NCBI GenBank assembly: GCA_964403635.1
Contig: CAYOGW010000005.1
Span: 6,289 to 46,356, forward strand
Length of the DNA stretch: 40,068 bases
DNA from: an uncultured Anaerolineaceae bacterium
Lineage (GTDB): Bacteria; Chloroflexota; Anaerolineae; Anaerolineales; Villigracilaceae
Reading direction: 5' to 3'
A program made the translations under genes and the position numbers. Positions 5,652 to 40,068 of this stretch are shown here, piece after piece (positions within the stretch are counted from its first letter, which is position 1; each line of letters opens with the position of its first letter). Below the pieces are notes generated by a model that searched no databases, was not told the origin of the DNA, and was given only the letters and a program-made list of their open reading frames with translations.

Positions 5652-6335
5652 ATGAAACTTTCAGTCATAATCCCTGTCTATAACGAAAAAAATACTGTTC
5701 GAGAAATTGTTAGCCGAGTAACAAACATGAAAATGGCCGATGAAATCTTAATGATTGATGACGGCTCTAAAGACGGCACTCGCGAAATTTTAGCAGAGCT
5801 GGATGGCAAGAATAAAGTGCGGGTTATCTTACATGAAAAAAATATGGGCAAAGGCGCGGCGGTAAGAACCGGCATTCAGGCTGCTAAAGGCGATATTATG
5901 CTCATTCAAGATGCCGATTTAGAATATGACCCACGCGAGTACCCAAACCTACTCAAGCCGCTAGATGAGGGGCTGGCCGATGTGGTATACGGCTCCCGTT
6001 TCCTCGGCGCGCCGCGCCGCCCTATTCTGTTCTGGAATATGATTGCCAACAAACTATTAACGTTAATGACCAATATTCTCTACAACAACATCCTTACTGA
6101 TATGGAAACAGGGTACAAAGTGTTTCGCCGAGAAGTAGTAGAAAATATGAAATTAAACGCCAACCGCTTTGACTTTGAACCCGAATTTACAGCAAAAATT
6201 TTGAAAAGAAAAGTTCGATTGTATGAAGTGCCAATCGTATTTAACCCACGCGAATATTCTGAAGGCAAAAAAATCGGTTTACGAGATGCCTTCGAAGCCG
6301 TTTGGGCGCTGCTAAAATACCGCTTTGTTGATTAA
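5652..6335 (+). CDS. Family 2 glycosyltransferase, DPM1-like polyprenyl-phosphate sugar synthase type
   Basis: 'MKLSVIIPVYNEKNTV...DDGSKDGT...IQDADLEYDP' shows the GT-A fold DxD/DAD motifs. A 227-aa soluble GT2 is typical of dolichyl/polyprenyl-phosphate mannose or glucose synthases. ORF-track start 5589 rejected in favour of ATG 5652. Confidence 0.8.
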   Translation: MKLSVIIPVYNEKNTVREIVSRVTNMKMADEILMIDDGSKDGTREILAELDGKNKVRVILHEKNMGKGAAVRTGIQAAKGDIMLIQDADLEYDPREYPNLLKPLDEGLADVVYGSRFLGAPRRPILFWNMIANKLLTLMTNILYNNILTDMETGYKVFRREVVENMKLNANRFDFEPEFTAKILKRKVRLYEVPIVFNPREYSEGKKIGLRDAFEAVWALLKYRFVD

Positions 6336-6337
6336 AT

Positions 6338-6367
6338 AAAAAAACCGCCAAAAAGGCGGTTTTTTTA
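6338..6367 (+). terminator. Rho-independent terminator
   Basis: 'aaaaaaccgcc-aaaaa-ggcggttttttt': GC stem ccgcc/ggcgg plus a T-tract. Confidence 0.75.
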
Positions 6368-6410
6368 TTTGCGCATGCACAGACGAAAATTCTGTTATAA
6401 AATCAAATTC

Positions 6411-7826
6411 ATGAACGAAAATATCCCCTTCTACAATAAGCCGCTTAATCGCGCTATTTTCTTAATCTTTCTTGGGTTTTTGTTATACACACTATTGCAA
6501 TTTGGGTTAAGCCCGGTCGTACCAGAAAACAGCAGCGAAACAGCACTGTTACGCGCTCAACAAGATTTATTTAATCGAACCTTAATTAATAATATTCCGC
6601 TAGACAGTTTTATTTTTATCGTGTCAATGGTTATTTGGCTTATATTTTTCGCCCAATTCATCTTACCTGTCAAAACAAGAGGGCAACGCCAAGCAATTGT
6701 AGAACGTATGGTAGAGTACTTATCCGGTTTTCATGGACCCGCCATTTTCATTGAAAATGGCATCGTTCGTGCCCGTGAAAGTGACAGCGAGAATAAACGC
6801 CGAGGCTTAGGCGTTATCTGGTTAGATTCAGCCAGCGCGGCGATGCTTCGAACCCAAGTGGCATTTACCAGGGTAGTCGGCCCGGGTGTTCACTTCACCA
6901 AAAATCATGAATATATCGCCGCAACGGTTGATTTGCACACCATGACCCAATCCATTGGGCCCAAAGACAGTGACCAACCATTTACCATTCGCAAAGAAGA
7001 TGAAACTTACAATGAAGTACAAAAAAGACGTTGGGAAACCAGCGCGTTAACACGCGATGGAATAGAAGTGGTTGCCATTTTGTCTATAACATTCCGAATT
7101 AAAGCAAATCCCAACGAAGGTGGTACACCCTTCGGCTTCAACCCCGAAAGCACCCGCCTTGCCATTACAGCCTCTTTAACCAAAGATTCAAAACTCGATG
7201 CCCCTGTTTGGAGTGAATTGCCCGCCAAAATGGCGGTGGATGTTTGGCGGGAATATTTAAGACGATTTAAATTAAGCCAATTGTTTGAAGAATCAGACGA
7301 TGATGAAACAACAATTTTACAAATGATTAATGCTCAAATCAAAGAAAGATTAAGTAAACCCAATGTGATGGCGCTGGACGAATTTGGCAAACCAATTATT
7401 GAAAATAAACAACCAAAATTAATTCCCAGCCGCGAATTTCAACAACTAGAAGAAATTGGCTATCAAGTGTATAGCGTTAATATTAAAAAGTTAATTTTTG
7501 CGCCAGAAGTGGAAGACAAAATAATTAATCAATGGAGCAGTTTGTGGCTTAAAAACGCTCAAAAAGAACGACAGCAAGTGGAAAGAAAACGCAAATTAAA
7601 AGAGATGGATGGTCAAAAAAATGCGCTCAAACAATTTGCAACGAGTTCAAGCGTGGATCTTTCACAAAATAACCCCAGAAACAAAGCCCATGCTTTAGAA
7701 ATGCTCTATCGCTCTACCCATCGCGGCATTATTCGCAATAACGAATTACTGCGTAAAATGAACACAGAGCCCAGCGATTTAAATGACTTTGCAAATTGGA
7801 TGAAAGACAAAGCGGAGAATCAATAA
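6411..7826 (+). CDS. SPFH/band-7 (stomatin/flotillin/HflKC-like) membrane protein with N-terminal TM hairpin and C-terminal coiled coil
   Basis: SPFH signature segments 'VVGPGVHFTKNHEYIAATVDL', 'TRDGIEVVAILSITFRIKANP' and 'IGYQVYSVNIKKLIFAPEVEDKI' (G-I-x-V-x-S-V-x-I-x-x-I-x-x-P-x-E-V). Two N-terminal TM helices and a K/E/Q-rich C-terminal coiled coil. The ORF is open from 6369, but ATG 6411 (MNENIPFY) with upstream 'tataaa' is the more plausible start. Confidence 0.6.
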   Translation: MNENIPFYNKPLNRAIFLIFLGFLLYTLLQFGLSPVVPENSSETALLRAQQDLFNRTLINNIPLDSFIFIVSMVIWLIFFAQFILPVKTRGQRQAIVERMVEYLSGFHGPAIFIENGIVRARESDSENKRRGLGVIWLDSASAAMLRTQVAFTRVVGPGVHFTKNHEYIAATVDLHTMTQSIGPKDSDQPFTIRKEDETYNEVQKRRWETSALTRDGIEVVAILSITFRIKANPNEGGTPFGFNPESTRLAITASLTKDSKLDAPVWSELPAKMAVDVWREYLRRFKLSQLFEESDDDETTILQMINAQIKERLSKPNVMALDEFGKPIIENKQPKLIPSREFQQLEEIGYQVYSVNIKKLIFAPEVEDKIINQWSSLWLKNAQKERQQVERKRKLKEMDGQKNALKQFATSSSVDLSQNNPRNKAHALEMLYRSTHRGIIRNNELLRKMNTEPSDLNDFANWMKDKAENQ

Positions 7827-9421: not shown

Positions 9422-10366
9422 ATGCTATTTAATCATCCCAATTATCAACCATTCAAACTTTCGTTTGAAGTTAACCGTGCAAATGCTCAAAAACAACCGA
9501 TTGTAGCCCTTGAATCAACCGTAATAACCCATGGCTTACCTCGCCCGCAAAACTTAAATTTGGCACAAGAGATGGAAACCATGGTTCGCGAGAATGGCGC
9601 GACCCCGGCGACCATTGCGCTAATGGATGGATATATTCGCGTTGGTTTAAGCGAAGATGAAATGGAAAAACTCGCGAATGCCCAACAACCCATTAAAGTA
9701 AGCTTGCGAGATTTTGCCACAGGGTTAGCAGGTAAAAGAACCGGTGGAACAACTGTGGCGGGAACCATGTTTGCGGCTCATCGCTGTGGAATACCCGTTT
9801 TTGCAACCGGCGGCATTGGCGGTGTGCATCACGAAGCCCGCTTTGATGTTTCTACTGATTTACAAGCATTATCTAACACCCCAATGATTATTGTCTGCGC
9901 TGGTGCAAAACGAATTTTAGATTTACCCGCCACCTTAGAATATCTCGAAACGATGGCAGTTCCGGTAGTCGGGTATCAAACCAACCATTTCCCAGAGTTT
10001 TATGTTCAAGGCAAAACCTTGCCCGTCAGTGTAAGTTTAGACAGCCCCCAAAATATTATCGAGTTTGCTCACTACCACTGGAATGTGCTAGGAATGAAAT
10101 CGGCTATTTTGGTTTGCCAACAAATTGACGCCAGCCACGCCTTAGATGTGAATCTCGCGGATGAAGCAGAACAGCAGGCATCTCAAGAAATCCGTGAAAA
10201 AGGAATTCGTGGTCAGGCTATTACTCCTTTTGAATTGCAACGTGTCGCCGAACTAACCAACGGAAAATCAATGCGTGCCAACATTGAACTCCTTAAAAAC
10301 AATGCGCGGCTGGCTGCAAAAATTTCAGTAGCCCTGCAAACTCAAAATCATCAACGAATGGCTTAA
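9422..10366 (+). CDS. psuG: Pseudouridine-5'-phosphate glycosidase (PsuG / IndA family)
   Basis: 'IVALESTVITHGLPRPQNL', 'GGTTVAGTMFAAHRCGIPVFATGGIGGVHH' and 'MIIVCAGAKRILDLPATLEYLET' are diagnostic for PsuG. About 310 aa. SD 'aggtga' 9 nt upstream. Confidence 0.85.
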   Translation: MLFNHPNYQPFKLSFEVNRANAQKQPIVALESTVITHGLPRPQNLNLAQEMETMVRENGATPATIALMDGYIRVGLSEDEMEKLANAQQPIKVSLRDFATGLAGKRTGGTTVAGTMFAAHRCGIPVFATGGIGGVHHEARFDVSTDLQALSNTPMIIVCAGAKRILDLPATLEYLETMAVPVVGYQTNHFPEFYVQGKTLPVSVSLDSPQNIIEFAHYHWNVLGMKSAILVCQQIDASHALDVNLADEAEQQASQEIREKGIRGQAITPFELQRVAELTNGKSMRANIELLKNNARLAAKISVALQTQNHQRMA

Positions 10367-10385
10367 TTAATTCCTTCTTACCATA

Positions 10386-10414
10386 AAATAAAAAGCGCCG
10401 AGGCGCTTTTTATT
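10386..10414. terminator. Bidirectional rho-independent terminator between convergent psuG and the repeat-protein gene
   Basis: 'aaaataaaaagcgccgaggcgctttttatttt': GC hairpin gcgc/gcgc flanked by an A-tract and a T-tract. Confidence 0.6.
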
Positions 10415-11377
10415 TTATGGGGTTTTTGTCGGAGTCAAACTAGGCCATGCCGTATCCGTCGGTCTTGGTGTACGGGTTGGCGCTCGGGTAGAGGTTGGCG
10501 GCACCGTTTTGGTTGGCGTTAAAACTGGGGTTGGGCTTGCCATGGCAGTAGCCGTTAAAGTAGGCGTGTCTGAAGCAAGCGGCGTTGGGCTTTCTGTCGG
10601 AACCGGCGTTGGAGCATCTCCGGTAACCACAAAGCGCCCAACCGACTTCCACTCCATACCTACAAAAATCTGCACTTCATAATTCCCCGGCAGCCATTGG
10701 TCTGGTGACGGCTGCCAAAAGGTAGAGCCATAGCCGCCAGTTGTTCCATCCCACGGCGCGGTTTCATAATAAACCAACTGGCCATCACGGTACCACAGCG
10801 CCGTCCACTGCACACCTGGGATCATTTGGTTATAGCTGTACAATACATAAATTCTCCGCAACGGGTTTGCAAATACCGTTGCCTCCCCCAACGGATTAAA
10901 ATTATTATCAATCCCTAGCGCAAACACCAAAGGGCTAAAAACCGCATCTGGGTTGGGGGTCACTTGGCTTTCAAAAGCCACTTCCAAAGCCAACGGAATA
11001 AACGGAGTTGTTGTAATGGTCGGGGTATCCGTTACCAGCGGCGTTTCGGTAATCGTTGGTGTTAAAGTAATCGTTGGGGTCAACGTAATGGTTGGGGTTA
11101 AAGTAATCGTTGGCGAAACGCTTGGGCTCGGTGAAGGCGGAAAATACTGATACGCCACCGGTTCACCATAAAGGCTTAACCCATAACCCCCAGCAAACAA
11201 CACCAATCCAAAGATAATCTGAAACCACCCCCCAGCCACCCGCTGCTGCCGCAACTGAAAAAATGTCAGTTTGCGGCCAGACTGAATGGATTGAAAGCCC
11301 AGCCATATCATCAACAACCCACCGATAACCGCCAAAAAAACAGCGGTTTCTACCCCAGCTTTAATATCCATGTTCAA
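10415..11377 (-). CDS. Membrane-anchored protein with Thr/Pro-rich hexapeptide repeats and a PT-rich C-terminal tail; unknown function
   Basis: Two N-terminal TM helices, then '(TITLTP)x3-TITETP-LVTDTP-TITTTP', a globular Trp/Tyr-rich domain, and a C-terminal 'PTPVPTESPTP...TPRPTDT' low-complexity tail. Confidence 0.65.
   Translation of the reverse strand: MNMDIKAGVETAVFLAVIGGLLMIWLGFQSIQSGRKLTFFQLRQQRVAGGWFQIIFGLVLFAGGYGLSLYGEPVAYQYFPPSPSPSVSPTITLTPTITLTPTITLTPTITETPLVTDTPTITTTPFIPLALEVAFESQVTPNPDAVFSPLVFALGIDNNFNPLGEATVFANPLRRIYVLYSYNQMIPGVQWTALWYRDGQLVYYETAPWDGTTGGYGSTFWQPSPDQWLPGNYEVQIFVGMEWKSVGRFVVTGDAPTPVPTESPTPLASDTPTLTATAMASPTPVLTPTKTVPPTSTRAPTRTPRPTDTAWPSLTPTKTP
11003..11110. repeat. 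Imperfect 18-bp tandem repeats (about 5-6 copies) encoding TPTITL hexapeptides
   Basis: Units 'ggtgttaaagtaatcgtt', 'ggggtcaacgtaatggtt', 'ggggttaaagtaatcgtt' and similar on the + strand. The antisense shadow ORF 10953-11150 is 'VGV' rich. Confidence 0.7.
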
Positions 11378-11418
11378 AATTATACTCGTAACCCTCTTTC
11401 ACTCGTTATAATCAAGTG

Positions 11419-12216
11419 ATGAATGAACTCATTTTTCTAAAATTAGGCGGTTCTTTAATTACTGAGAAAAGCCAGCCGTACACCGTTCGCTTATCCCTGC
11501 TTGCAGATATCGCGGCACAAATCGCCGCCGTTCGGCAGGCTACCCCCAGCCTGTCTCTGGTGCTGGGGCATGGTTCTGGCTCCTTTGGGCATACCGCTGC
11601 CAAACAACACGGCACCAAAGGCGGGGTTTCTAGCCCGCAAGGCTGGCAAGGCTTTAGCGAAGTGTGGTTTCAAGCCGCGACACTTAATCGCCATGTCATG
11701 CAGGCGCTCCACACGGCTGGTTTACCAGCCATCGCTTTTGCTCCTGTTTCAAGTATTACTGCCAAAAATGGTCAAATTTTGTATTGGAACTTAACCCCGA
11801 TTCAAGCTGCCCTGAAAGCTGGTTTAATCCCTGTCGTCTATGGGGATGTAATTTTTGACGAAGCTCTTGGCGGAACCATTCTCTCTACCGAAGATTTATT
11901 TGAACACTTGGCTTATCAGCTAAAACCAAAACGAATTCTGTTAGCTGGCATCGAGGAAGCAGTCTGGGCTGATTTTCCAGCAAAAAAGGAACGGGTGAGC
12001 CAGATTACTCCGAGCTCATTTAATGAGATTAAAGCAGGGGTTGGCAAATCTCAATCAGCAGATGTGACCGGCGGGATGGAATCAAAAGTAAAACAAATGC
12101 TTAATTTAATAGCGAATATTGATGGGTTAACTGCCGAAATTTTTAGCGGTGAAGCTCCAAATAACATCCAAAGAAGCATTAATCACGAACAAACTGGCAC
12201 GCTTATTTGCAAATAA
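11419..12216 (+). CDS. ipk: Isopentenyl phosphate kinase (amino-acid kinase fold; alternative mevalonate pathway)
   Basis: 'LIFLKLGGSLITEK', 'LVLGHGSGSFGH' (catalytic His motif, cf. archaeal IPK 'VHGGGAFGH'), 'LIPVVYGDVIFD' and 'SADVTGGM' all parallel archaeal IPK. A TATAAT at 11407-11412 lies 6 nt before ATG 11419 (GTG 11416 also possible). Confidence 0.7.
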   Translation: MNELIFLKLGGSLITEKSQPYTVRLSLLADIAAQIAAVRQATPSLSLVLGHGSGSFGHTAAKQHGTKGGVSSPQGWQGFSEVWFQAATLNRHVMQALHTAGLPAIAFAPVSSITAKNGQILYWNLTPIQAALKAGLIPVVYGDVIFDEALGGTILSTEDLFEHLAYQLKPKRILLAGIEEAVWADFPAKKERVSQITPSSFNEIKAGVGKSQSADVTGGMESKVKQMLNLIANIDGLTAEIFSGEAPNNIQRSINHEQTGTLICK

Positions 12217-20292: not shown

Positions 20293-22947
20293 ATGCATAT
20301 TTGTTTTGTCTCTTTAGATTATCCTTCGGAAACTTCTGGCGGCGGCGTAGGAACAATTATGCAGCTGCTGGCAAAGGGATTTTCAGAAGACTGTCAACAA
20401 GTCAGTGTGATTGCGCTTCAACAAGAAGGTGAAGCCCCTTTCTCGCGGGATGGCGATGTGCTTATTTGGCGGTTTAAACCTTCTCACTTGCATTGGTATG
20501 TTTCAAAAATTCCATGGCTGGGAAAGAACTTAAGCCCCGTGGTGAGAGAATTAGAACGAAGCTGGGGCGCTTGGCGGCTGCTACAAAAAATTAATCAACA
20601 AAAAGAAGTTCATGCCGTTGAATTAATTGAAACCGGCGGGCTGTTTATTTCGCTTTTAGAAAGAGCCAAATTAATCGCGGTGCGCTTACACGGCGAACAA
20701 TATACTTTTCAAAAATATACACCTTTCCTTCAACTCAATTGGGGGTTAAAACTCACCCGTTTCATCCAACGTGTTGCCATCCGCAATGCCAATTTAAGAA
20801 TTTCCCCCAGCCACTGGCACGCCCAAGAAATTGCTGAAGAAACCGGTTTAAATAAGCAATCTATTCTGGTTTTATCGAATGCCATTGCTATTCCAACCAA
20901 GTTTCAGTTTTCAAATAATCACGCCAACCCTTTAATTCTTTTTGCTGGACGTTTAGAGCAATTAAAAGGTGTGCCATTGTTATTAGAAGCGTTTGCTTTA
21001 CTGCGAAAAGAAATGCCGCATGTTCGGCTTGCCTTAGCAGGAACATCTCACCCCAGCTTGCCAGAAAGCCAATTGAAAGAACTCATCCATCAATACCACC
21101 TTGAAAAATCAGTTCAACTGCTGGGATACATCCCCAACCAACAGTTAAAAGATTGGTTTAAAAAATCATCTGCGCTGGTGCTGCCTTCGTATTACGAAAG
21201 CTTTGGCTTAGCCGCCTTAGAAGCCATGGCGCACGGTTTACCAGTGGTTGCCTCTACAGCGGGCGCTTTACCCGAATTAATTAAAGAGAATGAAACTGGC
21301 TTGTTATTTAAAAGCGGAGACGCGCAAGCTTTGGCTGGTCAACTAAAAAAAATATTAAGTAGCCCCAAGCTACAAAAGCATTTGGCAAAAAATGCTCACC
21401 GCTTTAGTTTGCAACACTTTAATGCAAAAGAAAGCATTCTGCAAAACTTAACCCTTTATAAAAATAACTTAAAAATCCCGCCAAGCCCCAAACATGTGTT
21501 TTTTTCTCCACATTTGGATGATGTCATCCTTTCGTGCGGTGGAACAGTGAAAGAATTAAATAAAAACGCGCCTGTTGAAGTGGTGACAGTTTTTAGCGGT
21601 CAACCCAAAACCGCCGCAATAGGCACATTTGCAGAACACATTCATGCCAAGTGGAACTTGCCGCCGCAGACCGCAATTCTTTCTCGCCGCGATGAAGACC
21701 TGCTGGCTTTTTCAATTCTGTCTCCTACTATCCAAGTGACCCATTGGGGTTATCTAGAGGCGTTATACCGTCAGGAAAAAAACCACCAACCCCTGCATTC
21801 CGCTTATCAAAGCCTGCGTGGACCTCTACATCAGCAAGAAGAAGCCTTGATACCAACCCTTGTTTCACAAATCGAAAACCATTATTCAAAAGAAAATCAA
21901 CTTTATTTTCCAATGGGTTTGGGCACTCATGTAGACCACCGCATCTTATTTAAAACAGGCTACCAATTAAATCAACGGGGCTGGCCAGTGTTTTTTTATG
22001 AAGACTGGCCCTATGCAGAAAATTACGAACCTATTAGTAAGAAAAATTGGCAAGTTCTTGATCAACCAATTTCGCTTACCGAAAAAATTAAAGCGGCCGA
22101 AGCCTATGGATCTCAGCAAAAAGGGCTTGGGTATAGCCTAGCCGACCGATTAACAAACTATGCTCATCAAAACAAAAACCCATTGAAGACCAGTGAACGC
22201 ATTTGGCAGGCACAGCCCAACGATGAAGAAGTACCATTTAAACTCAAAAAGAAACAATGGCAGCTTGCCGATTTTTTAATTTTTTATAAAAGCCTTAACT
22301 GGAGAGATCTCTCCGAGCGGCTGCCGTTGGGCAGCGGTTACTGTTTAGATATTGGCAGTGGCAGCGGCAGAAACCAAGTAGCCATTGAAACCAAAGGTTA
22401 CACTTGGCTAGGGCTGGATTTAAACCGTCAGCGGAGGCAACACCTGCAAGCCAGCGCCAGCCGCCTGCCGGTAGCCAGCCAAAGCGTTGAGGCGGCTATT
22501 CTTTGGCAAGTGCTAGAATATCTCGAAAACCCTCAACAAGCGTTAGCAGAAGCCATCCGCACTTTAAAACCTGGCGGCGTGCTCTGCGGTAGCGTTTCAT
22601 TTTTAGAGCCGGTTCATGGACAAACCTATTATGGCATCAGCCATCACGCCATTCAAAAATTATTAATAGACCAACCTTTGCTGGATATTCAGATTCAGCC
22701 GGGCATTTCTGGCTTTACCCTGCTGATATGGACCTGGCTTAATCGTCTAGGCTTAAGCAGGCTAAGCGGATTGTGCCTGCCGTTATCGAGGTTTTTTTTG
22801 GTGCCCCCAGCCGCTTTGCTATTTTTGGTCAGTTGGCTGCAATGGCGGTTAGGCTGGGGCAGCGGGCATTTTATGGCGTGGCTGACAGAACGCGCCCCGC
22901 TGGAATTTGCAGGGCATATTCACTTTATTGCCAGAAAAGCAAGCTAA
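20293..22947 (+). CDS. Tri-domain enzyme: GT4 glycosyltransferase / LmbE(PIG-L)-family N-acetylglucosaminyl deacetylase / class I SAM methyltransferase, with C-terminal hydrophobic segment
   Basis: aa 1-390 GT4 ('ESFGLAALEAMAHGLPVVASTAGALPELI'). aa ~400-640 LmbE-like ('VFFSPHLDDVILSCGG' resembling the HPDDE zinc motif, and 'GLGTHVDHR' resembling HxDH). aa ~650-884 MTase ('CLDIGSGSGRN', 'LKPGGVLCGSV'), followed by a hydrophobic tail. Confidence 0.75.
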   Translation: MHICFVSLDYPSETSGGGVGTIMQLLAKGFSEDCQQVSVIALQQEGEAPFSRDGDVLIWRFKPSHLHWYVSKIPWLGKNLSPVVRELERSWGAWRLLQKINQQKEVHAVELIETGGLFISLLERAKLIAVRLHGEQYTFQKYTPFLQLNWGLKLTRFIQRVAIRNANLRISPSHWHAQEIAEETGLNKQSILVLSNAIAIPTKFQFSNNHANPLILFAGRLEQLKGVPLLLEAFALLRKEMPHVRLALAGTSHPSLPESQLKELIHQYHLEKSVQLLGYIPNQQLKDWFKKSSALVLPSYYESFGLAALEAMAHGLPVVASTAGALPELIKENETGLLFKSGDAQALAGQLKKILSSPKLQKHLAKNAHRFSLQHFNAKESILQNLTLYKNNLKIPPSPKHVFFSPHLDDVILSCGGTVKELNKNAPVEVVTVFSGQPKTAAIGTFAEHIHAKWNLPPQTAILSRRDEDLLAFSILSPTIQVTHWGYLEALYRQEKNHQPLHSAYQSLRGPLHQQEEALIPTLVSQIENHYSKENQLYFPMGLGTHVDHRILFKTGYQLNQRGWPVFFYEDWPYAENYEPISKKNWQVLDQPISLTEKIKAAEAYGSQQKGLGYSLADRLTNYAHQNKNPLKTSERIWQAQPNDEEVPFKLKKKQWQLADFLIFYKSLNWRDLSERLPLGSGYCLDIGSGSGRNQVAIETKGYTWLGLDLNRQRRQHLQASASRLPVASQSVEAAILWQVLEYLENPQQALAEAIRTLKPGGVLCGSVSFLEPVHGQTYYGISHHAIQKLLIDQPLLDIQIQPGISGFTLLIWTWLNRLGLSRLSGLCLPLSRFFLVPPAALLFLVSWLQWRLGWGSGHFMAWLTERAPLEFAGHIHFIARKAS

Positions 22948-31412: not shown

Positions 31413-31482
31413 CCCGATGTTGCAATGTTCTTATACGCATTGAATTGGCATAATGGGGCTACTCTATAAAGGAAAGACGCTT

Positions 31483-32994
31483 ATGAAAAGTTTACCCATT
31501 ACACGCCCAATTATCCAAATTGAAGAAAACGCCGGCCTGCAAAAATGGATTAATGTTGTCCTTAAACGCAGTTTCGATATCTTTGCTTCTCTGTTTGGGC
31601 TTTTGCTTCTTGCTCCATTTTTTGTATTAATTGGCTTCTTTATAAAACGCGAATCTCCCGGCCCGGTCTTCTTTAAAGGGCCTCGCATGGGCAAAAACCA
31701 ATCTATTTTTTACATTTGGAAATTCCGCACCATGTACGAAAGAGTAGAAAGTTATGAAGGGCCTTCCATCACAGCCAAAGGAGATGCCCGTATCACACCC
31801 CTTGGTCACTGGTTACGATTAACAAAAATAAACGAATTACCTCAATTAATTAATGTTTTGTTTGGGGAAATGAGTTTGGTTGGGCCTCGCCCTGAAGTGC
31901 CAGAAATTGCCCAAGACTGGCCCAAAGACGCCAAGCGAGAAGTGCTTTCCGTTCAACCTGGCATTACCAGCCCCGCTTCTATTCTCTATCGAGATGAAGA
32001 AGCTATGTTAATTGGCAATAACAGCATGGATGATTACCTGCGAAAAATATTGCCAGATAAACTTCGCCTCGACCAGCTTTATGTTCGCAATCACACCTTC
32101 TTATCCGATTTAGATGTCATTTTGATGACATTAATCGTGCTGCTGCCAACTGTTCGCAACACACCCATTCCTGAAGCGCGCTTATACGTTGGTCCACTTT
32201 CTATCTTTACCCACCGCATCTGGAATTGGTTTGTCATTGACAGCTTAATTGCTTTTACTGCCATCGCCGCCGCAGGTATTTTGTGGCGCACAGGCGGCCC
32301 GCTAGAACTAGGCGTTGATGTAGCCCTATTGGTGGGGTTAATCATGGCATTAATATTCAGCCTATCAAATTATCTCTTAGGCCTGCATCGTGTCGCTTGG
32401 AGATACGCCCCACCGGCTCTGGCGATTGACTTGGCATTTTCTGGCTTCTTAGCCACCCTAAGCATTGTTGCAGTTAATTTCTCGTGGCCTGGGCAGCAAC
32501 TGCCACTAGGAATGCTTTTATTTTCTGGCTTTTTCACCTTTATCGGTTTTACAGCCGCCCGCTACCGCGAGCGCCTTCTTATGGGCTTGGCCTCCCGCTG
32601 GGTATACCACCGTAACCGCTTTAGCCCGATTGGCGAACGTGTCTTAATTGTTGGCGCCGGTGAATATGGTCAAATGGCCGCTTGGCTTATGCAAAAAAGC
32701 GCCTTCGCTTCGGCTTATGTAATTTTAGGCATGGTCGACGATGACATTCACAAACAAGGCATGTTAATTGACGGTTACCCGGTAGTTTGCGGCTCACGAG
32801 AATTAGCCCGCATGGTTAAAGACAAAGATGTAGGTTTAATTTTATTTGCCATCTCAAACATTAATCCGCGAGAACGAGAGCGAATTTTAAACATCTGCCG
32901 CAAAACCAACGCAAGGGTTGTCATCATGCCCGATATTTTGCAAATTTTACACACCCAATTAGCACAAGAGACTCCTTACCAAACCTATGCCTAA
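31483..32994 (+). CDS. Polyprenyl-phosphate phosphoglycosyl transferase (bacterial sugar transferase family) with atypical order: catalytic domain, then 4 TM, then Rossmann-like domain
   Basis: N-terminal 'KRSFDIFASLFGLLLLAPFFVLIGFFIKRESPGPVFFKGPRMG...FYIWKFRTM...NELPQLINVLFGEMSLVGPRPEVPE' is the PGT catalytic core. Four TM helices then follow, then 'LIVGAGEYGQMAAWLM...ILGMVDDD', which resembles the cytoplasmic Rossmann-like domain of WbaP/PglF-type proteins. SD 'ggaaag' before ATG 31483. Confidence 0.75.
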   Translation: MKSLPITRPIIQIEENAGLQKWINVVLKRSFDIFASLFGLLLLAPFFVLIGFFIKRESPGPVFFKGPRMGKNQSIFYIWKFRTMYERVESYEGPSITAKGDARITPLGHWLRLTKINELPQLINVLFGEMSLVGPRPEVPEIAQDWPKDAKREVLSVQPGITSPASILYRDEEAMLIGNNSMDDYLRKILPDKLRLDQLYVRNHTFLSDLDVILMTLIVLLPTVRNTPIPEARLYVGPLSIFTHRIWNWFVIDSLIAFTAIAAAGILWRTGGPLELGVDVALLVGLIMALIFSLSNYLLGLHRVAWRYAPPALAIDLAFSGFLATLSIVAVNFSWPGQQLPLGMLLFSGFFTFIGFTAARYRERLLMGLASRWVYHRNRFSPIGERVLIVGAGEYGQMAAWLMQKSAFASAYVILGMVDDDIHKQGMLIDGYPVVCGSRELARMVKDKDVGLILFAISNINPRERERILNICRKTNARVVIMPDILQILHTQLAQETPYQTYA

Positions 32995-34150
32995 CCCATC
33001 TGCATCATCCCCCCAATGGCGGGTACCGCTCGCCGAAGTAGACTTTGGTCCCGAAGAACCCGCTGCTGTTTTAGCCGTTTTAAAGAGCCGTTGGCTTAGC
33101 ATGGGTGCTGTTACTAAAGCCTTCGAAGATGAGTTCGCAGCCTTTTGCGGTGCAAAACACGCTTTTGCCCTCACCAATGCCACAGCCGCCCTGCATCTCT
33201 CTTGCTTGGCAGCTGGCGTAGGCAGCGGAGATGAAGTCATTCTCCCGAGTCTTACCTTTGTTGCCACTGCCAACGCTATTCGATACACTGGCGCAAAACC
33301 GGTTTTCGCAGATGTGAACAGCTTAAACGACTGGACATTATCACCTGAAGCAGCAGAAGCCTTAATTACCCCCCGTACGCGTGCCATCATGCTCATGCAC
33401 TACGCGGGTTACGCATGCAATATCTCTGCTTTTCAAGCGCTTGCCGAGAAGCACAATTTAATTTTATTAGAAGATGCAGCCCATGCTGTAGGCGGCACCC
33501 TCAACAATCAGCATCTTGGAACGTTTGGACAAAGCGGCAGTTATAGCTTCTTTCCGAACAAAAATATGACCACCGCCGAAGGCGGCATGTTGGTTACCAA
33601 CGATGATGCCATCGCCGAAAAATTTCGCATCCTGCGCTCGCACGGCATGACCAGCCTAACCTGGGACCGCCACCGCGGTCACGCTTTCAGTTACGATGTT
33701 GTTGATTTAGGTTATAACTACCGAATGGATGAGTTAAGGTCTGCCTTAGGGCGGGTTCAACTTAACAGAATAACAGCAGGCAACCAAAAGCGCCGCCAGC
33801 TCACCGAGCAATATCGCAGCCAATTAAATGGTCTACAAATTCCATTTGATCATCACACCGGTACATCGGCCTGCCATATATTGCCCGCTTTATTACCCGA
33901 AGGCGTTAACCGAAATCGATTTATGGAAGTGATGAAAGAAAACGGGATTCAAACCAGCATTCACTACCCGCCCATCCATACATTTAGTGAATTTAACAGG
34001 CAGACTCCCGAAGGCCGCCTACCCATTACCGAAGCCATTGGCCAGCGAGAAGTAACCCTGCCGCTCTTCCCCGCCATGAGCGCAGAACAATTAAACTGGG
34101 TTATCTCAGCGGCGAAAGACGCGTTAGAAACTTGTTTGCAAGAAGGATAA
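32987..34150 (+). CDS. DegT/DnrJ/EryC1/StrS-family PLP-dependent sugar aminotransferase
   Basis: 'DEVILPSLTFVATANAIRYTGAKPVFADV', 'LEDAAHAVGG' and 'SFFPNKNMTTAEGGM' (PLP-lysine region, aligned by context). Confidence 0.85.
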   Translation: MPNPSASSPQWRVPLAEVDFGPEEPAAVLAVLKSRWLSMGAVTKAFEDEFAAFCGAKHAFALTNATAALHLSCLAAGVGSGDEVILPSLTFVATANAIRYTGAKPVFADVNSLNDWTLSPEAAEALITPRTRAIMLMHYAGYACNISAFQALAEKHNLILLEDAAHAVGGTLNNQHLGTFGQSGSYSFFPNKNMTTAEGGMLVTNDDAIAEKFRILRSHGMTSLTWDRHRGHAFSYDVVDLGYNYRMDELRSALGRVQLNRITAGNQKRRQLTEQYRSQLNGLQIPFDHHTGTSACHILPALLPEGVNRNRFMEVMKENGIQTSIHYPPIHTFSEFNRQTPEGRLPITEAIGQREVTLPLFPAMSAEQLNWVISAAKDALETCLQEG

Positions 34151-34158
34151 TGAATTAA

Positions 34159-36036
34159 ATGGAAATTAAGTTTTATATTGCCATTCTTAAACGCTGGGCT
34201 TGGTTGCTCATCGCTGGCTTAATCATAAGCAGCTTATTGGGGTATGGTATTTCACTTTTAGAAACCCCCACCTACCAAGCCAGTACCAAAGCGTTGGTTA
34301 TGCGCCCTTCGCAAAATAACAGCACCGAATTGGGTTATTTATCTGACCAGCAATTGGTGCAAACCTTTATGCAGCTATTAACCACCACTCCAGTGGTCGA
34401 TACCGCATCGCAGCGATTAAGCTTCCCCATTGACCGAACCAAAATAACCGTTCAGCAAGTGCGCGATACCCAAGTGATTTTGGTAACAGTTGAAGACACC
34501 GAACCTTTACGCGCAGCCATGATTGCTAATGTGATGGTAGAAGTATTGGTCGAACAAAATGAAAACCTGCAATCTGGGCGATACCTTTCGATTGAAGAAT
34601 CATTAAACAGCCAAATTTCTCAAGTAGAAGCTCAAATTAACGAATTACAACTAGAAATTGACCAAATTTCTACTGCGCGCGTACAAGACCAAACCGACCA
34701 AATTCAGGCACAAATTAACACATTACAAAGCCAAATTGTGGCCTTAGAAAGTGAAAATGGGCGATTATCTGCCGCACCGGCACAAAACGCATCTCAAATT
34801 GCTGAAAATAATGCCCGCATTGCTCAAAGTAAATCCCTGCTCAATGTCTATCAAGAAATTTTTACCAACTTGGTCATTTTGGGTAAACCGGCAGAAAGTT
34901 CCGGGTCAGATTATGTCACCCGCTTACAATCTACCTTAAAACTATATCAAGAAATTTATTTGCAATTGCTCACCAACCTAGAGAATGTACGCCTTGCTCG
35001 GCTGCAAAACACCCCTAACTTGGTTCAAATTGAAAAAGCAGAAGTGCCTTTTATACCCATTAGCCCCAAGCCTTTTGTTAACATGGCCATTGCCGGAGCG
35101 ATTGGTTTAATGCTGGCCGCCAGCGGCGTGTTTATTTACGAATATTTAAATGACACACTGCGTACCCCTCATGATGTTGAGAAGATGCTCGACTTGCCAG
35201 TCTTAGGCTATATCTCAGAAATGACAAACACAGCCGAAAATAAAGTAACCGGTTTAACCGTTTTAGACCAGCCTCGGTCGCCCATTTCTGAAGCCTTTCG
35301 TGTGCTGCGAACTAATTTAGAATTCGCAGCAACGGACCAAGCCTTACAAACCCTGCTGGTTACCAGTTCACGCCCATCCGAAGGAAAAACAACCGTAGCC
35401 GCCAACCTAGCCGCCAGCTTTGCTCAGCGCGGAAAGCGCGTTTTATTGGTAGATTGTGACCTGCGCAGACCCGCAGTTCACCGCATCATGCGCATCCCAA
35501 ACCGAACCGGTTTAAGCACCCTCTTCCGCGGAGAAGTTCACCTCGATGCGGTAATCCGTAATATCGAAAACGGCATCACAGAAATTGGTGTTATTACCAG
35601 CGGAAGTATTCCCGCCAATCCCGCAGAGTTATTACAGTCGGACCGCATGTTAATGATTTTGGCAGAATTAAGAAACGCAGCCGATATTATCATATTAGAC
35701 AGCCCCCCCATTATGCTGGCAGATGCTCAAGTGTTAGCCGCTTTGGTAGATGGTGTAATTTTAGTGATGCAGCCCGGCCGCTCCAAAAACGAAGAATCTC
35801 GCTCCACTCTTGCGCAACTTAATCGCGCGGGCGCGCGGGTATTGGGTACTGTCTTTAATCGAATACCCAAAGACAACCGAGAATATTATGGCGGCTACCA
35901 ATACTATTCTACTGAAGGCTACGGGGCATACGCATCCCCTACTGACCGCCCTATCCAAACCATTTCTACCTATAAAGAGCCTTCTACCCGCCCGAACTTA
36001 AATCCAACCAACTCACATCGCCGATCCAATAGGTAA
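34159..36036 (+). CDS. wzc: Polysaccharide co-polymerase fused to bacterial tyrosine autokinase (Wzc-type; Wzz domain + BY-kinase + C-terminal Tyr cluster)
   Basis: TM1 'WAWLLIAGLIISSLLGYGISLL', a long coiled-coil ecto-domain, TM2 'MAIAGAIGLMLAASGVFIY'. Kinase Walker A 'SSRPSEGKTTVAANLAASFA', Walker A' 'VDCDLRRP', Walker B 'IILDSPP'. Tyr-rich tail 'EYYGGYQYYSTEGYGAY'. Confidence 0.85.
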   Translation: MEIKFYIAILKRWAWLLIAGLIISSLLGYGISLLETPTYQASTKALVMRPSQNNSTELGYLSDQQLVQTFMQLLTTTPVVDTASQRLSFPIDRTKITVQQVRDTQVILVTVEDTEPLRAAMIANVMVEVLVEQNENLQSGRYLSIEESLNSQISQVEAQINELQLEIDQISTARVQDQTDQIQAQINTLQSQIVALESENGRLSAAPAQNASQIAENNARIAQSKSLLNVYQEIFTNLVILGKPAESSGSDYVTRLQSTLKLYQEIYLQLLTNLENVRLARLQNTPNLVQIEKAEVPFIPISPKPFVNMAIAGAIGLMLAASGVFIYEYLNDTLRTPHDVEKMLDLPVLGYISEMTNTAENKVTGLTVLDQPRSPISEAFRVLRTNLEFAATDQALQTLLVTSSRPSEGKTTVAANLAASFAQRGKRVLLVDCDLRRPAVHRIMRIPNRTGLSTLFRGEVHLDAVIRNIENGITEIGVITSGSIPANPAELLQSDRMLMILAELRNAADIIILDSPPIMLADAQVLAALVDGVILVMQPGRSKNEESRSTLAQLNRAGARVLGTVFNRIPKDNREYYGGYQYYSTEGYGAYASPTDRPIQTISTYKEPSTRPNLNPTNSHRRSNR

Positions 36037-36041
36037 CCCGT

Positions 36042-36545
36042 ATGCCATCTGTATTATTTGTCTGCCGCGCCAATCAATTTCGTTCTCCCATCGCGGCAGC
36101 GTGTTTTGAAAGAAAATTAAAAAGCCTAAACTGGAAACAAACTTGGGTCATTGACAGCGCTGGTACTTGGGCGTCAGATGGCCTAGCTGTTGCAGCCTTA
36201 CCCAAACAAGTTGCCAACCAATTAGGGCTTTCATTAGAAACTCATATTGCGAACTTAATCACTGCCGAGTTATTAGAAAAATTTGACTTAATTCTGGTGA
36301 TGGAAGATGGACAAAAAGAAGCCCTGTGGGTTGAATTTCCTGAAGCACAGAACAGAATTAAAATGTTAACCGAATTAGTTAGCAATGAAAGCTATAACAT
36401 CATCGACCCAGATGGCGAAAGCCTAGAGTTTAGCCAAGCCCTCGCCGAAGAAATATGCCGATTAATTGAAAGTGGATTTTTTAGAATTGTTACACAAGCC
36501 TTAACGCTACACAGTATGCGCTTAAAAACACAAGTCTTTAATTAA
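36042..36545 (+). CDS. Low-molecular-weight protein tyrosine phosphatase (Wzb-like)
   Basis: P-loop 'VLFVCRANQFRSPIA' (C-x5-R-S) and the Asp loop 'IIDPDG'. 167 aa, immediately after the BY-kinase gene. Confidence 0.7.
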   Translation: MPSVLFVCRANQFRSPIAAACFERKLKSLNWKQTWVIDSAGTWASDGLAVAALPKQVANQLGLSLETHIANLITAELLEKFDLILVMEDGQKEALWVEFPEAQNRIKMLTELVSNESYNIIDPDGESLEFSQALAEEICRLIESGFFRIVTQALTLHSMRLKTQVFN

Positions 36546-36557
36546 GCAGGAGTAAAA

Positions 36558-37571
36558 ATGAAAATCTCATCAAACACTTGGTTACTTTTTACCTTAATCG
36601 CTTTAGTCGCTTCGGCTTGTATCGGTGGCTTTATATTTGTAAGCCAGTTTTTGCAAACAGGCGCACCCCTTAACGTAAACACCAACCCAACCCTACTGCC
36701 TACCACAGTGGCATTAACTGTGCTTAATACACCTACCTTGGTAGCAGAAAATACGGCTACATCCATCCCACCGGTAGGCACTTGTGGACAAACCGGAAAA
36801 AATCAAGTCTTAATTGTCGTTTTTGCCAGCGCTGGTGAAGAGCCTGTCGGATCAGAAGCCATTTATCTAATTCAAGCCAATTATGCCAACCCACAAATTA
36901 AAGGGCTTGCCTTCGACCGTGAATTAACGGTACAAACCCCCAGCCAATCAGGCTACCCAAGTAGCACTGCCAAATTAAACGACCTGTATAATTTTCGCTT
37001 AAACCAATTCGGCGGCGTAAGCCAACCACAAGCCCACCCCGGCGCTGTAAATTTAATCTCGCAGGCTATTTTTGACAATTATGGTTTAGTACCTAATAAT
37101 TACATTGCCTTTGATGCCTTAATGTTGCCCAACATTGTTAATGCCATTGGCGGGCTGGATGTAAACCTTCCGGCTGCCTACCGATACGGTGCTTTTTCTG
37201 TTCCTGCAGGCGTTCAAAAATGGAATGGAGCAACCACCCTTGCTTATGTCAGCGCCTTGGCAGATAACGAAACAGAAGTTCAGCGGCGTGAAAGGCAAAT
37301 ATTGGTATTAAACGCTTTATTGCTGAACCCAACCTTTATTGGTCGCTTACCAGAATTAACTGACCGAATTAAAAACAGCATCATCACCGATTTAGATGCC
37401 ACCCAAATTACCAACCTAGCCTGCTTAGCCAGCCAACTGGGCTCCTTTGATGCCCCCATTACAAGCGTCAATGGGGATAATGGCGTCCGAAAGCCAGATG
37501 GCAGTATTTCATTCTTTTTAGCAAGTGATTTAAAAGCCTATCTTCTGGAGTGGCAAGGGCAACTCCCTTAA
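36558..37571 (+). CDS. LytR-CpsA-Psr (LCP) family glycopolymer-to-peptidoglycan ligase
   Basis: N-terminal TM anchor, then 'VLIVVFASAGEE...AIYLIQANYAN' and 'AYVSALADNE...ERQILVLNALL', consistent with the LCP catalytic domain pattern (moderate similarity). SD 'aggagt' upstream. Confidence 0.55.
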   Translation: MKISSNTWLLFTLIALVASACIGGFIFVSQFLQTGAPLNVNTNPTLLPTTVALTVLNTPTLVAENTATSIPPVGTCGQTGKNQVLIVVFASAGEEPVGSEAIYLIQANYANPQIKGLAFDRELTVQTPSQSGYPSSTAKLNDLYNFRLNQFGGVSQPQAHPGAVNLISQAIFDNYGLVPNNYIAFDALMLPNIVNAIGGLDVNLPAAYRYGAFSVPAGVQKWNGATTLAYVSALADNETEVQRRERQILVLNALLLNPTFIGRLPELTDRIKNSIITDLDATQITNLACLASQLGSFDAPITSVNGDNGVRKPDGSISFFLASDLKAYLLEWQGQLP

Positions 37572-37583
37572 TTATCTCTAATT

Positions 37584-37620
37584 AAAATAAAGCATCACTC
37601 AAAAAGTGATGCTTTATTTT
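37584..37620. terminator. Bidirectional rho-independent terminator between the glycan cluster and the convergent surface-protein gene
   Basis: 'ataaagcatcac-tcaaaaa-gtgatgctttatttt': 10-12 bp stem with A/T tracts on both sides. Confidence 0.7.
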
Positions 37621-37635
37621 AATTAAGAATTGATA

Positions 37636-40068
37636 TTACTCAGTCTCAATTTTAATTAATACAGCCCGTACAACGGTACGATAGCGGTATGTTTTCGTTA
37701 TCGGGTCAAATTGCTGGCAAGTAATTAACGTAATCCAGTCATATTCTTCGTGTTTGGTTAGCAGCCGTGTATCAAAAGCAGTTACCAAACCATTCGTCCG
37801 AATAGCATAAGTGTATTTCTGACCATCAGCATGAATAACCACTGTATCGCCATATTTCAAATCTTTAATTAATGCAAATGGGCCGCTTAATCCATCAGCC
37901 GTGTACGAGTGAGCAGTAAGAACTGTGTTACCTTCCCAAGTTGGGTATGCCGTGCCTTCAAGCCAACCCACCGAACGATTAAGCCAGGTCAAATCCCATC
38001 CTTGTGCTTCTAAGGGAATTCCCGTAATAGCAGATTTGACATTTAAAGATGGAATCTCAATCCATAAGTTGCCCAAGGCTTGATAGGCTTTTTCGGCTGG
38101 CTGGGCTGGTAACTTGGTCACCACTCCTGGAGCAAATCCGGTTTCTGGGTTGCTACGCACTGAAATTAACACCGAGAATGTTAATTGTTGGTCTACACCG
38201 CCATTCAGTTCGTTCCCTGCCAAATCGACAATAGAAGTGGAACCACAAATAAATAATCGATAGGTTCCATTGGATAAGCCGAGCCCATTATTAATAGTTA
38301 CCTTCGCAATAGATGTATTGCTATCATAATCAACTGGTCCGGTTGGGATCAATACATCATCCCCAGCTACCGAACCGGAACAACTAACCGTATCAAATAC
38401 ATTATTTAATCCGCCATTGACCAAAAGGTAATTGGCGGGGTTGGTTACATCATCTGGGTCGCTATCACCAGCTGGGTCATACGCTTCTTCATTAAACTTC
38501 ACCCAAATTTCTGTGGGGTTTTTATTGATGGAAGAACCATTCACAATTAATGTGTTGTCTGGCAATGTAACGCCGCCAGCCATTACCTGAATACCAGTCG
38601 TATCTACATAAAAGACCCGCACGAAATCTGCTGGTAACGGATAACCAAATGAATCGGTGATTGTGTTTTTAACTGTCAGCGTATATTTACCTTCTGTCAG
38701 CGCAACACTACCATTGATATCTAAAGTAACCGTATCATTTAAATTATTGTAAGTAGCTGTATTAATCGTTATCGGGGTGGCGACATCTTTAATTAAGCTG
38801 TAATTACTGACATTCTCAGCATCTGCCGAAGTCATCGCTTTGTTAAATTCAACGATTAATTGGGTGATTGCAACAGCTGTATATTCATCTTCGCTTACCT
38901 GACCATCACCGGTATCTGCACTACTATCAATATTTATAACCCCAGCGGGGCCATCAACAATTAAGCTGAAAGATTGAATATCATCGCTGCCAACACCATT
39001 GGATGCGGTAATGGTTAATGGGTAACTCCCCGTTGTACTGGTAGCTGGCGTACCCGATAAGATAGCCGTACCATCCCCTTGGTCGACAAAGGTTAATCCG
39101 CTAGGAAGGCTGCCCGCTTTGGATAAAGCTGGTGTTGGTGAACCGGTTGTCGTGACGGTGAAGCTGCCAAATGCACCTTCTACCATAGTGAAGTTATCCG
39201 CGCTGGTAATGGCTGAAGCTTGATTAATCGTCAGAGTTAAGGTTTGAGATGCGTTTGGAGAAATACCATTGTTCCCGGTTAGGCTGAGCACATATACACC
39301 CGCATCACCAGATAATGGAGTACCACTTAATGTTGCCGAACCATCGCCATCATCTGTAAAGGTAATGCTGGCTGGTAAGGTTGGATTAATTAAAGCTGAA
39401 ATGGCTGCATCTGGGTAACCTGTAGTGGTGACATCAAAACTTTCGGAGGTGCCAACGGTGAAGGTGGTGGTATTGGCGTTTGTAAAGGTAGGCGCTAAAT
39501 TAACGGTCTGCGTAAGCACAGACGAGGTGCTAGTAGCAAAGGTGCTGTCTCCAGAATAGACGCCGCTGATTAAATGGGAGCCAGCTGAGAGCGTAGAAAG
39601 CCCAAGCGCGGCTTGTCCGCTACTATCGATTGTTTGAGTGCCAAGGCTGGTCGCGCCATCAAAAAACTCAACATTACCCGAAAGCGTTAAGGGCGAAGAT
39701 TCGCTGACAGTAACCGTAAATGTAACCACTTGCCCATAAACGGATGGATTTAAGTTAGAAACAACGCTGCTGCTGGTTGCCGTTTTATTGACTAAAACGC
39801 TATCACTACAATCGTTATTGGTTTCGTCTGATTCAGTTTGAACATCAATCGGGTCAATTACACATACGCCCGCAGCACGCGGATTATCATAATCACCGAT
39901 AGCCGAAGGCGTTACTGAAAAGGTGACATCGACTTCTCCGGTGGTATCTGCGATAGTTACAGACCCACCACTAGCGGTACAAGTGAGATTGCTGCTGACA
40001 TCAATGCTGCAGCTAATGCTGCCAGTGCCGCCGATGCCGCTTGGGTTGGCGGTGCTGACCGAACCATA
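37636..40068 (-). CDS. Large surface protein (N-terminus beyond window) with putative Ig (He_PIG-like) repeats and a C-terminal sortase catalytic domain
   Basis: Frame is open to the window end with no stop through 40068; the ORF-track 'M' at 39729 is a GTG. Repeats 'FTVGTSESFDVTTTGYP...SITFTDDGDGSATLSGTP' and 'FGSFTVTTTGSP...GLTFVDQGDGTAILSGTP' are putative Ig-type. C-terminal sortase motifs: 'WIEIPSLNV', 'NTVLTAHSY' (His) and 'ITLITCQQF' (TLxTC Cys), with Arg in 'YRYRTVVRAV'. Confidence 0.75.
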   Translation of the reverse strand, partial: YGSVSTANPSGIGGTGSISCSIDVSSNLTCTASGGSVTIADTTGEVDVTFSVTPSAIGDYDNPRAAGVCVIDPIDVQTESDETNNDCSDSVLVNKTATSSSVVSNLNPSVYGQVVTFTVTVSESSPLTLSGNVEFFDGATSLGTQTIDSSGQAALGLSTLSAGSHLISGVYSGDSTFATSTSSVLTQTVNLAPTFTNANTTTFTVGTSESFDVTTTGYPDAAISALINPTLPASITFTDDGDGSATLSGTPLSGDAGVYVLSLTGNNGISPNASQTLTLTINQASAITSADNFTMVEGAFGSFTVTTTGSPTPALSKAGSLPSGLTFVDQGDGTAILSGTPATSTTGSYPLTITASNGVGSDDIQSFSLIVDGPAGVINIDSSADTGDGQVSEDEYTAVAITQLIVEFNKAMTSADAENVSNYSLIKDVATPITINTATYNNLNDTVTLDINGSVALTEGKYTLTVKNTITDSFGYPLPADFVRVFYVDTTGIQVMAGGVTLPDNTLIVNGSSINKNPTEIWVKFNEEAYDPAGDSDPDDVTNPANYLLVNGGLNNVFDTVSCSGSVAGDDVLIPTGPVDYDSNTSIAKVTINNGLGLSNGTYRLFICGSTSIVDLAGNELNGGVDQQLTFSVLISVRSNPETGFAPGVVTKLPAQPAEKAYQALGNLWIEIPSLNVKSAITGIPLEAQGWDLTWLNRSVGWLEGTAYPTWEGNTVLTAHSYTADGLSGPFALIKDLKYGDTVVIHADGQKYTYAIRTNGLVTAFDTRLLTKHEEYDWITLITCQQFDPITKTYRYRTVVRAVLIKIETE

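Follow-up and report, generated by a model that had tools for sequence, protein, structure and literature searches.

A C-terminal sortase domain paired with its own LPxTGF motif: a candidate self-anchoring module in surface proteins of Chloroflexota

A gene at the end of a 40,068-nucleotide stretch of DNA from an uncultured Anaerolineaceae bacterium (contig CAYOGW010000005.1; the whole stretch is called the window below) codes for a giant surface protein that closes with a sortase catalytic domain and carries, shortly before that domain, the sorting-signal-like motif NPETGF. In the sortase paradigm, a membrane-anchored enzyme acts repeatedly on separate substrates, which are held by C-terminal membrane anchors of their own. 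The locus raises the question of what a sortase does that is itself the end of a putative substrate. Judging from sequence comparisons, we give a slightly better than even chance to the interpretation that the last ~175 residues are a self-contained anchoring module, by which the chain would cleave itself and its N-terminal portion, termed passenger here, would be moved to an amine of the cell envelope. We regard the odds as evenly balanced that this is a previously undescribed sorting system, namely a single-turnover "autosortase" tag that would mediate covalent self-attachment without a membrane sortase and form a new class outside A-F. The chemistry would be familiar but its organisation new, in a large family that is confined to one lineage and has no name yet.

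Domain layout and the catalytic domain

The frame on the minus strand, read from base 40068 downward, is open over 810 codons and ends with a stop codon at 37636-37638, whereas the N-terminus of the protein lies past the window edge. The features of the gene are listed below (aa, amino acid positions within the open frame; Ig, immunoglobulin; pLDDT, predicted local distance difference test).

37636..40068, minus strand: 3' part of the gene, frame unbroken to the window edge
39499..39756, minus strand: Big_3_5 bacterial Ig-like domain of the passenger, aa 105-190 (PF16640, E 3e-20)
38956..39486, minus strand: two He_PIG putative Ig domains of the passenger, aa ~195-371 (PF05345, two stretches)
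38596..38955, minus strand: beta-rich stretch, aa 372-491, Big_5/SbsA-like by sequence pattern (candidate label, unconfirmed)
38164..38595, minus strand: conserved Ig-like domain just before the motif, aa 492-635 (from conservation; AlphaFold2 pLDDT >90)
38134..38151, minus strand: NPETGF motif, aa 640-645, with the putative scissile bond T643/G644
38065..38133, minus strand: ordered linker APGVVTKLPAQPAEKAYQALGNL, aa 646-668, predicted to pack on the sortase domain at the class C lid position
37639..38064, minus strand: sortase catalytic domain, aa 669-810, a predicted eight-stranded barrel without membrane segment or basic tail
37909..37911, minus strand: catalytic His720 (TAH), 100% conserved
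37717..37719, minus strand: catalytic Cys784 (TLITC), 100% conserved
37678..37680, minus strand: catalytic Arg797, 99% conserved

An earlier note on this DNA had described a giant protein of Ig repeats with a catalytically intact sortase domain as its C-terminus, and this description was borne out by the one continuous 810-codon frame, in which neither a stop nor a frameshift separates the repeats from the sortase domain. Hidden Markov model scans matched both He_PIG (most clearly at aa 287-371, with aa 195 as an estimated outer limit) and the Sortase family PF04203 within this frame, the latter at aa 670-804 with an E value of 2e-21 and 76.3 bits against a cutoff of 26.6. The catalytic triad was recovered on alignment as His720, Cys784 and Arg797, which are 99-100% conserved in an alignment of 213 sequences. 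In AlphaFold2 models, aa 492-810 reached a pLDDT of 92.9 and a predicted template modelling score (pTM) of 0.84, and aa 636-810 alone a pLDDT of 95.7 and a pTM of 0.91 with eight strands, as in the eight-stranded beta-barrel of the sortase fold. Fold, triad and model cutoff all place the domain in the sortase superfamily.

The assignment to a class is a different matter. Apart from PF04203, the generic TIGR01076 was the only model to be passed (43.2 bits, cutoff 39.35), and none of the NCBIfam class models listed, which do not include classes A and B, was matched above its cutoff (34-51 bits against 140-166). The respective bits and cutoffs were 51.2 and 160 for class C, 45.9 and 140 for SrtD, 44.1 and 165 for class D, 37.3 and 166 for class F, 36.3 and 160 for class E, and 34.1 and 158 for the GN model. 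Classes A-F are typically small enzymes with a membrane anchor of their own beside the catalytic domain, whereas here a passenger of >660 aa lies upstream. The domain is thus outside the class-specific models and without the membrane anchor typical of classes A-F.

The linker does contain a sorting-signal-like motif, as had been noted earlier, but at a different distance and of a different kind than proposed. The gap between the motif and the first sortase strand is 25-30 residues rather than ~45, with WIEIPSLNV beginning at aa 669, and the family consensus is not of SrtB type but a classical LPxTG followed by an invariant Phe. Asn at the first motif position is a minority variant found in 19 of the 213 sequences, all within the clade of the query protein. 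Nor does the query resemble an ordinary cell-wall sorting substrate, in which a hydrophobic segment and a basic tail follow a motif that lies within ~40 residues of the C-terminus; its tail ends in ...KIETE. Two linker residues, T651 and Y662, reach a conservation of at least 95%. Even in the model that omits the Ig-like domain, aa 646-668 had pLDDT values of 92-97, with 86 for the first ten residues and 96 for the next ten. Since the linker is ordered even without the Ig-like domain, the models suggest that it is part of the sortase domain fold. By sequence, the closest structures in the PDB are class C sortases bearing a lid. The query lacks the DP[FWY] lid motif of these enzymes and has NPETGFAPG (family consensus LPxTGFAPG) in the corresponding segment, and it is suggestive that the motif would sit at the position of the class C active-site lid.

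The module across the family

A profile built from an alignment (A1) headed by aa 492-810 of the query was searched against 1.84 billion cluster representatives and retrieved 1,602 clusters (50% identity) at E<=1e-30. In all of the best 150 of these 1,602 clusters, whose proteins range from 300 to 2,735 aa, the module is located at the extreme C-terminus. All members with a taxon name belong to the Chloroflexota, mostly to the Anaerolineae or Anaerolineales, and the databases annotate the proteins merely as "sortase family protein". In species-representative genomes the sortase domain closes proteins of 817, 1,375, 1,971 and >2,395 aa, the second of which is from a Brevefilum fermentans metagenome-assembled genome (MAG), and the best related locus in the GTDB representative set is 35-57% identical.

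The pairing of motif and enzyme was assessed in 149 representatives that are mutually <50% identical. The pattern [LIVNM..]Px[TS]G[FL] was present within the last 215 residues of 148 of them, with LPEAGF in the sole exception, and a pentapeptide L/I/N/V-P-x-T-G, counting S or A at the Thr position, in 149 of 149. Its spacing is nearly fixed. Among the 148 matching proteins, 146 have it 166-175 residues before their end; the query has it at 171 and shows the family layout of motif, intact triad and sortase as last domain. The residue at x varies widely (A 53, K 17, D 16, Q 12, S 12, N 9), and such free variation is a signature of a genuine LPXTG signal. In the alignment of 213 sequences P641, T643, G644 and F645 are 99-100% conserved, on a par with the triad. 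In a large subfamily, including the query, a common Ig-like domain immediately precedes the motif; elsewhere CLIPPER domains fill that place. Across the 149 representatives, residues N546, Y547, L549, C563, D571, Y581, G601, Y603, C608, G609, G624, D626 and F631 of the Ig-like domain are 97-100% conserved. The cysteines C563 and C608 (99%; window positions 38245-38382 for aa 563-608) probably form a disulfide.

In contrast to the module, the passengers are mutually unrelated. They include Big_12, seven TIG domains, a right-handed beta-helix, a Laminin_G_3 lectin, PQQ-like and Vgb-lyase-like propellers, DUF1565, a zinc phospholipase C and CLIPPER isopeptide stalk domains; such a spread is what a portable sorting tag would show. 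In the query, relatives of aa 1-104 (window 39757-40068) with 48-57% identity were found in MAGs of Solirubrobacterales and Wenzhouxiangellaceae (L011-L013), so that this passenger domain type is common to lineages well outside the Chloroflexota. No Pfam family was matched at E<0.1 by aa 372-491 or aa 492-635, both of which are beta-rich; Big_5 (PF13205) is on record in relatives of the query.

Export through the Sec pathway is indicated by the N-termini of the relatives. Of the 129 representatives whose sequence begins with Met, 92 have an N-terminal hydrophobic segment, followed in many by AxA-type sites, and most complete open reading frames (ORFs) of at least 650 aa in the fetched loci open with an evident Sec signal peptide. 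The nearest full-length relative, P0236 (1,912 aa), starts with the Sec signal peptide MKRSVSIIVLIIIFLMQSILTMPVTARA and has NPNTGF 171 residues from its end; it falls into the cluster of P0088, a protein that shares 50% identity with the query over 82% of the query's length. Sec signal peptides also occur in relatives from loci L001 and L008. None of the 149 representatives has a membrane-like segment after the motif, the highest 19-aa Kyte-Doolittle average in the last 175 aa being 1.79.

Where paralogues are arranged in tandem (L032, L006), each copy has a module of its own. This strict one-to-one ratio of enzyme to motif, unbroken in the tandem pairs as well, speaks for a stoichiometric use of the enzyme and against a catalytic one. 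The pair in L032 (6363-8792 and 8819-10903, plus strand) encodes proteins of 810 and 695 aa with near-identical signal peptides, beta-helix passengers and an LPKTGF-sortase module in each. These data disfavour the alternative in the earlier note, by which the Ig repeats might hold a class E/F sortase at a distance from the membrane, as the signal peptides look cleavable, the passengers are diverse and include enzymes and lectins, tandem paralogues exist, and the class E and F models scored far under their cutoffs.

The fused layout itself could be suspected to be an artefact of mis-assembly, or of the loss of a stop codon by which a surface-protein gene had been kept apart from a sortase gene. 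Many relatives do stand in the databases as short, separate "sortase" proteins, and 85 such entries of 134-366 aa from Chloroflexi and Anaerolineales came up in the first homologue search. The artefact explanation is refuted. The sequences of these entries start in the middle of Ig-like or DUF11/CLIPPER domains, and those examined proved either to be fragments on short contigs or to have been severed from a longer gene, by a frameshift in L015/L016 and by an in-frame TAA in L017/L018; in each case the rest of the passenger lies immediately upstream. The fused layout moreover recurs in >1,000 independent clusters, and the ORF in the window is continuous.

The short homologues were consequently rejected as stand-alone enzymes, P0003, P0066 and P0015 being pieces of longer genes. 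P0003 is preceded by a run of frameshifted pieces of an Ig-domain gene. P0066 (318 aa) overlaps an upstream 2,739-aa CLIPPER-domain gene by 59 nucleotides (L015 9968-10059; L016), which indicates a frameshift between the two; it is identical in two assemblies and could be real or an assembly error. P0015 (176 aa) is split from an upstream 1,407-aa passenger gene only by an in-frame TAA within a conserved Ig-like domain (L017 about 9880-9890, and L018), likewise the same in two assemblies, which could reflect a pseudogene, a strain variant or readthrough. A further entry, P0034 (254 aa, on a 224-kb contig), has a beta-helix-like N-terminal region that joins the sortase domain midway at GGWDVTWL... 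and has neither LPxTGF nor the first sortase strands. Recombination or truncation of the gene may lie behind it, as may a chimeric assembly.

Self-attachment and competing explanations

From this architecture we infer the following course of events for the self-anchoring module. The protein would be exported by Sec and its N-terminal signal peptide removed. The C-terminal sortase domain would then fold so that the motif belonging to it came to lie in the substrate groove or close by, at the place of the class C lid, and Cys784 would attack the Thr643-Gly644 bond, leaving the passenger thioester-linked to the sortase domain. Resolution of the thioester by an envelope amine, most likely that of a peptidoglycan stem peptide or lipid II, would attach the passenger covalently, and the sortase domain, now starting with Gly-Phe, would be released after a single turnover. 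Cleavage may take place within a chain or between copies. The possibility of self-processing had been raised before, and it is better grounded now that motif and domain are seen to be always paired, one per protein, at a fixed spacing and with the motif conserved at the level of the triad, the cleavage itself being a prediction from these patterns. Engineered single-chain fusions of a sortase and LPXTG do cut themselves (PMC2901362).

Several points weigh against this reading. The module has no membrane anchor that would bring it to lipid II. In the profile alignment with the Ebp class C pilus sortase (24rr), "lPaTGFapg" lies opposite "GSNPGLDPF", with TGF adjoining the lid DPF at equal distance from strand 1, but the posterior probability of this alignment is low. 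An apparent link between the residue at motif position 1 (L or N) and changes near the active site, at positions 723, 770-771 and 785-786, was not counted as evidence, because all NPxTG sequences form one clade and the signal is confounded by shared descent. A scan of the window and of related loci (0.99 Mb, 1,273 ORFs) detected no canonical substrate in which a membrane segment and a basic tail follow LPXTG; this speaks in favour of the module, but weakly, as the scan was confined to gene neighbourhoods. In nine loci, a putative sortase of the family NF053836 is encoded beside the module gene and could be the real processing enzyme there. Finally, the motif, invariant as it is, might just as well serve as a pseudo-substrate lid that is never cleaved.

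Under that last explanation LPxTGF would occupy the groove and be autoinhibitory in the manner of DP[FWY], and the sortase would act in trans, with the N-terminal region positioning or targeting the enzyme. It would account for the motif at the lid position and for the linker ordered on the domain, it agrees with the lid-bearing class C sortases as closest structures by sequence, and it would make sense of the invariant Phe after Gly, which is foreign to ordinary sorting signals. We nevertheless consider it unlikely. Unrelated enzymes, lectins and stalks fit poorly to a dedicated scaffold for a single enzyme, the relatives have cleavable-looking signal peptides and no anchor, and every tandem paralogue keeps its domain. 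Trans substrates of the canonical kind did not appear in the neighbourhoods, and a lid has no need of a complete L-P-x-T-G with a free x.

The events proposed for the self-anchoring module could also end differently. Sortases are able to hydrolyse their substrates when no nucleophile is available. If the chain were cut at T/G and water resolved the thioester, the passenger would be freed, and the module would be a removable pro-domain or secretion aid. Such release or maturation would rest on the same architecture as self-anchoring, it is in line with the lack of an element that would retain the protein in the membrane near lipid II, and the engineered fusions do let their cargo go. Yet the passengers are of the type of wall-anchored adhesins and stalks (Ig, TIG and CLIPPER isopeptide domains), and a transpeptidase of 170 residues would be a costly device for one proteolytic cut; we rate this outcome as distinctly unlikely. 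A third alternative is intermolecular polymerisation, in which the sortase domain of one molecule would link the Thr of a second to a Lys or the N-terminal amine of a further one, yielding covalent fibres or a cross-linked surface layer in the manner of pilus sortases. The pilus-assembling class C sortases among the top sequence and profile matches and the tandem paralogues speak in its favour. As a pilin-type lysine upstream of the motif is not conserved in any position among the 149 representatives, it appears very improbable to us.

Gene neighbourhood and relation to known systems

In the window the sortase-fusion gene converges on a plus-strand Wzy-type polysaccharide cluster containing glycosyltransferases, a Wzy_C protein, a sugar transferase, a DegT aminotransferase, a Wzz/tyrosine-kinase protein, a low-molecular-weight phosphatase and an LCP protein. 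The end of this cluster (31453-37571, plus strand) consists of the sugar transferase with a PglD-like N-terminal domain, the DegT aminotransferase, a Wzz/GNVR and P-loop tyrosine-kinase-like protein, the low-molecular-weight phosphotyrosine phosphatase and the LCP (LytR_cpsA_psr) protein. Further upstream in the cluster, an 884-aa ORF (20293-22947, plus strand) unites GT4 glycosyltransferase, PIG-L deacetylase and methyltransferase domains. The earlier note had pointed to this glycan and LCP cluster as a neighbour; the convergent arrangement is present in the window, but it did not recur in the contexts of relatives examined, which differ among themselves, and clustering of the ORFs from ~92 loci revealed no widely shared operon partner. 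The G + C content of the gene (0.449) equals nearly that of the window (0.447), and a scan of 37400-37800 for promoters and terminators gave no significant signal.

The only recurrent neighbour is the above-mentioned gene matching NF053836 ("sortase_YLP, putative sortase"; E 7e-66, without a Pfam match), which codes for a small secreted or anchored protein of ~215 aa, lies directly beside the module gene in the nine loci and is followed by a recurring gene for a membrane protein of ~485 aa. It is not present in the window. It could be a functional partner or reflect mere synteny within one clade. Its positions are as follows.

L001, about 5848-6861, minus strand: NF053836 neighbour
L054, about 11038-11682, minus strand: NF053836 neighbour
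L067, about 9798-10442, minus strand: NF053836 neighbour
L034, L043, L049, L068, L075 and L078: NF053836 neighbour in the other loci

With canonical sortase/LPXTG sorting (classes A-F, PF04203) the family shares the fold, the His-Cys-Arg triad, TLxTC, an L-P-x-T-G with a free x, and Sec-secreted cargo with adhesin-like Ig and stalk domains. It differs in that enzyme and substrate are a single polypeptide in a one-to-one ratio, that the motif is followed by the enzyme itself instead of a membrane segment and basic tail, and that this sortase lacks a membrane anchor of its own. Class C pilus sortases (24rr, 6bwe/5k9a, 2xwg, 6ixz) are the top sequence and profile matches, and they too have the domain covered by an ordered segment ~25-30 residues before strand 1, the place taken here by LPxTGF. 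Unlike in these enzymes, however, a sorting-signal pattern replaces the lid DP[FWY], no membrane anchor is found on either side of the domain, and the pilin-type lysine upstream is not conserved.

Searches of full-text literature, with subscription journals scarcely covered, brought up no natural sortase fused behind its own signal but only engineered tags. These self-cleaving tags (Mao's method; BISOP, PMC2901362) likewise carry sortase and LPXTG on one chain. They are artificial, however, and have the order sortase-LPXTG-target, in which the target is the leaving group, whereas in the order passenger-LPxTG-sortase the passenger would be the acyl donor and the enzyme would leave. The proposed logic also resembles, by analogy only, the C-terminal autoprocessing of Hedgehog/HINT proteins, in which a thioester is formed, the passenger is handed to a nucleophile and the processing domain is shed once it has acted a single time. 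In fold and chemistry the two have nothing in common, without sequence or structural similarity: Hedgehog/HINT domains perform an N-to-S acyl shift, whereas a cysteine transpeptidase would here attack an upstream Thr-Gly bond. Portable tags with a separate processing enzyme are known from the C-terminal domain of the type IX secretion system (T9SS) and from the PEP-CTERM/exosortase and GlyGly-CTERM/rhombosortase systems. They resemble the module as conserved C-terminal elements on many unrelated secreted proteins of one lineage; in the family described here, in contrast, the enzyme is contained in the tag.

If self-cleaving, the module would be a natural and compact self-ligating unit of ~175 residues with a possible use in protein engineering, and the reverse of present sortase self-cleavage tags because the cargo is the part transferred. 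A natural family with an enzyme in every substrate, neither of them membrane-anchored, would, if true, add a different route of envelope attachment to those known. It would also help to explain how surfaces are built in the filamentous Anaerolineae of digesters, sediments and soils, which are environmentally abundant and poorly studied.

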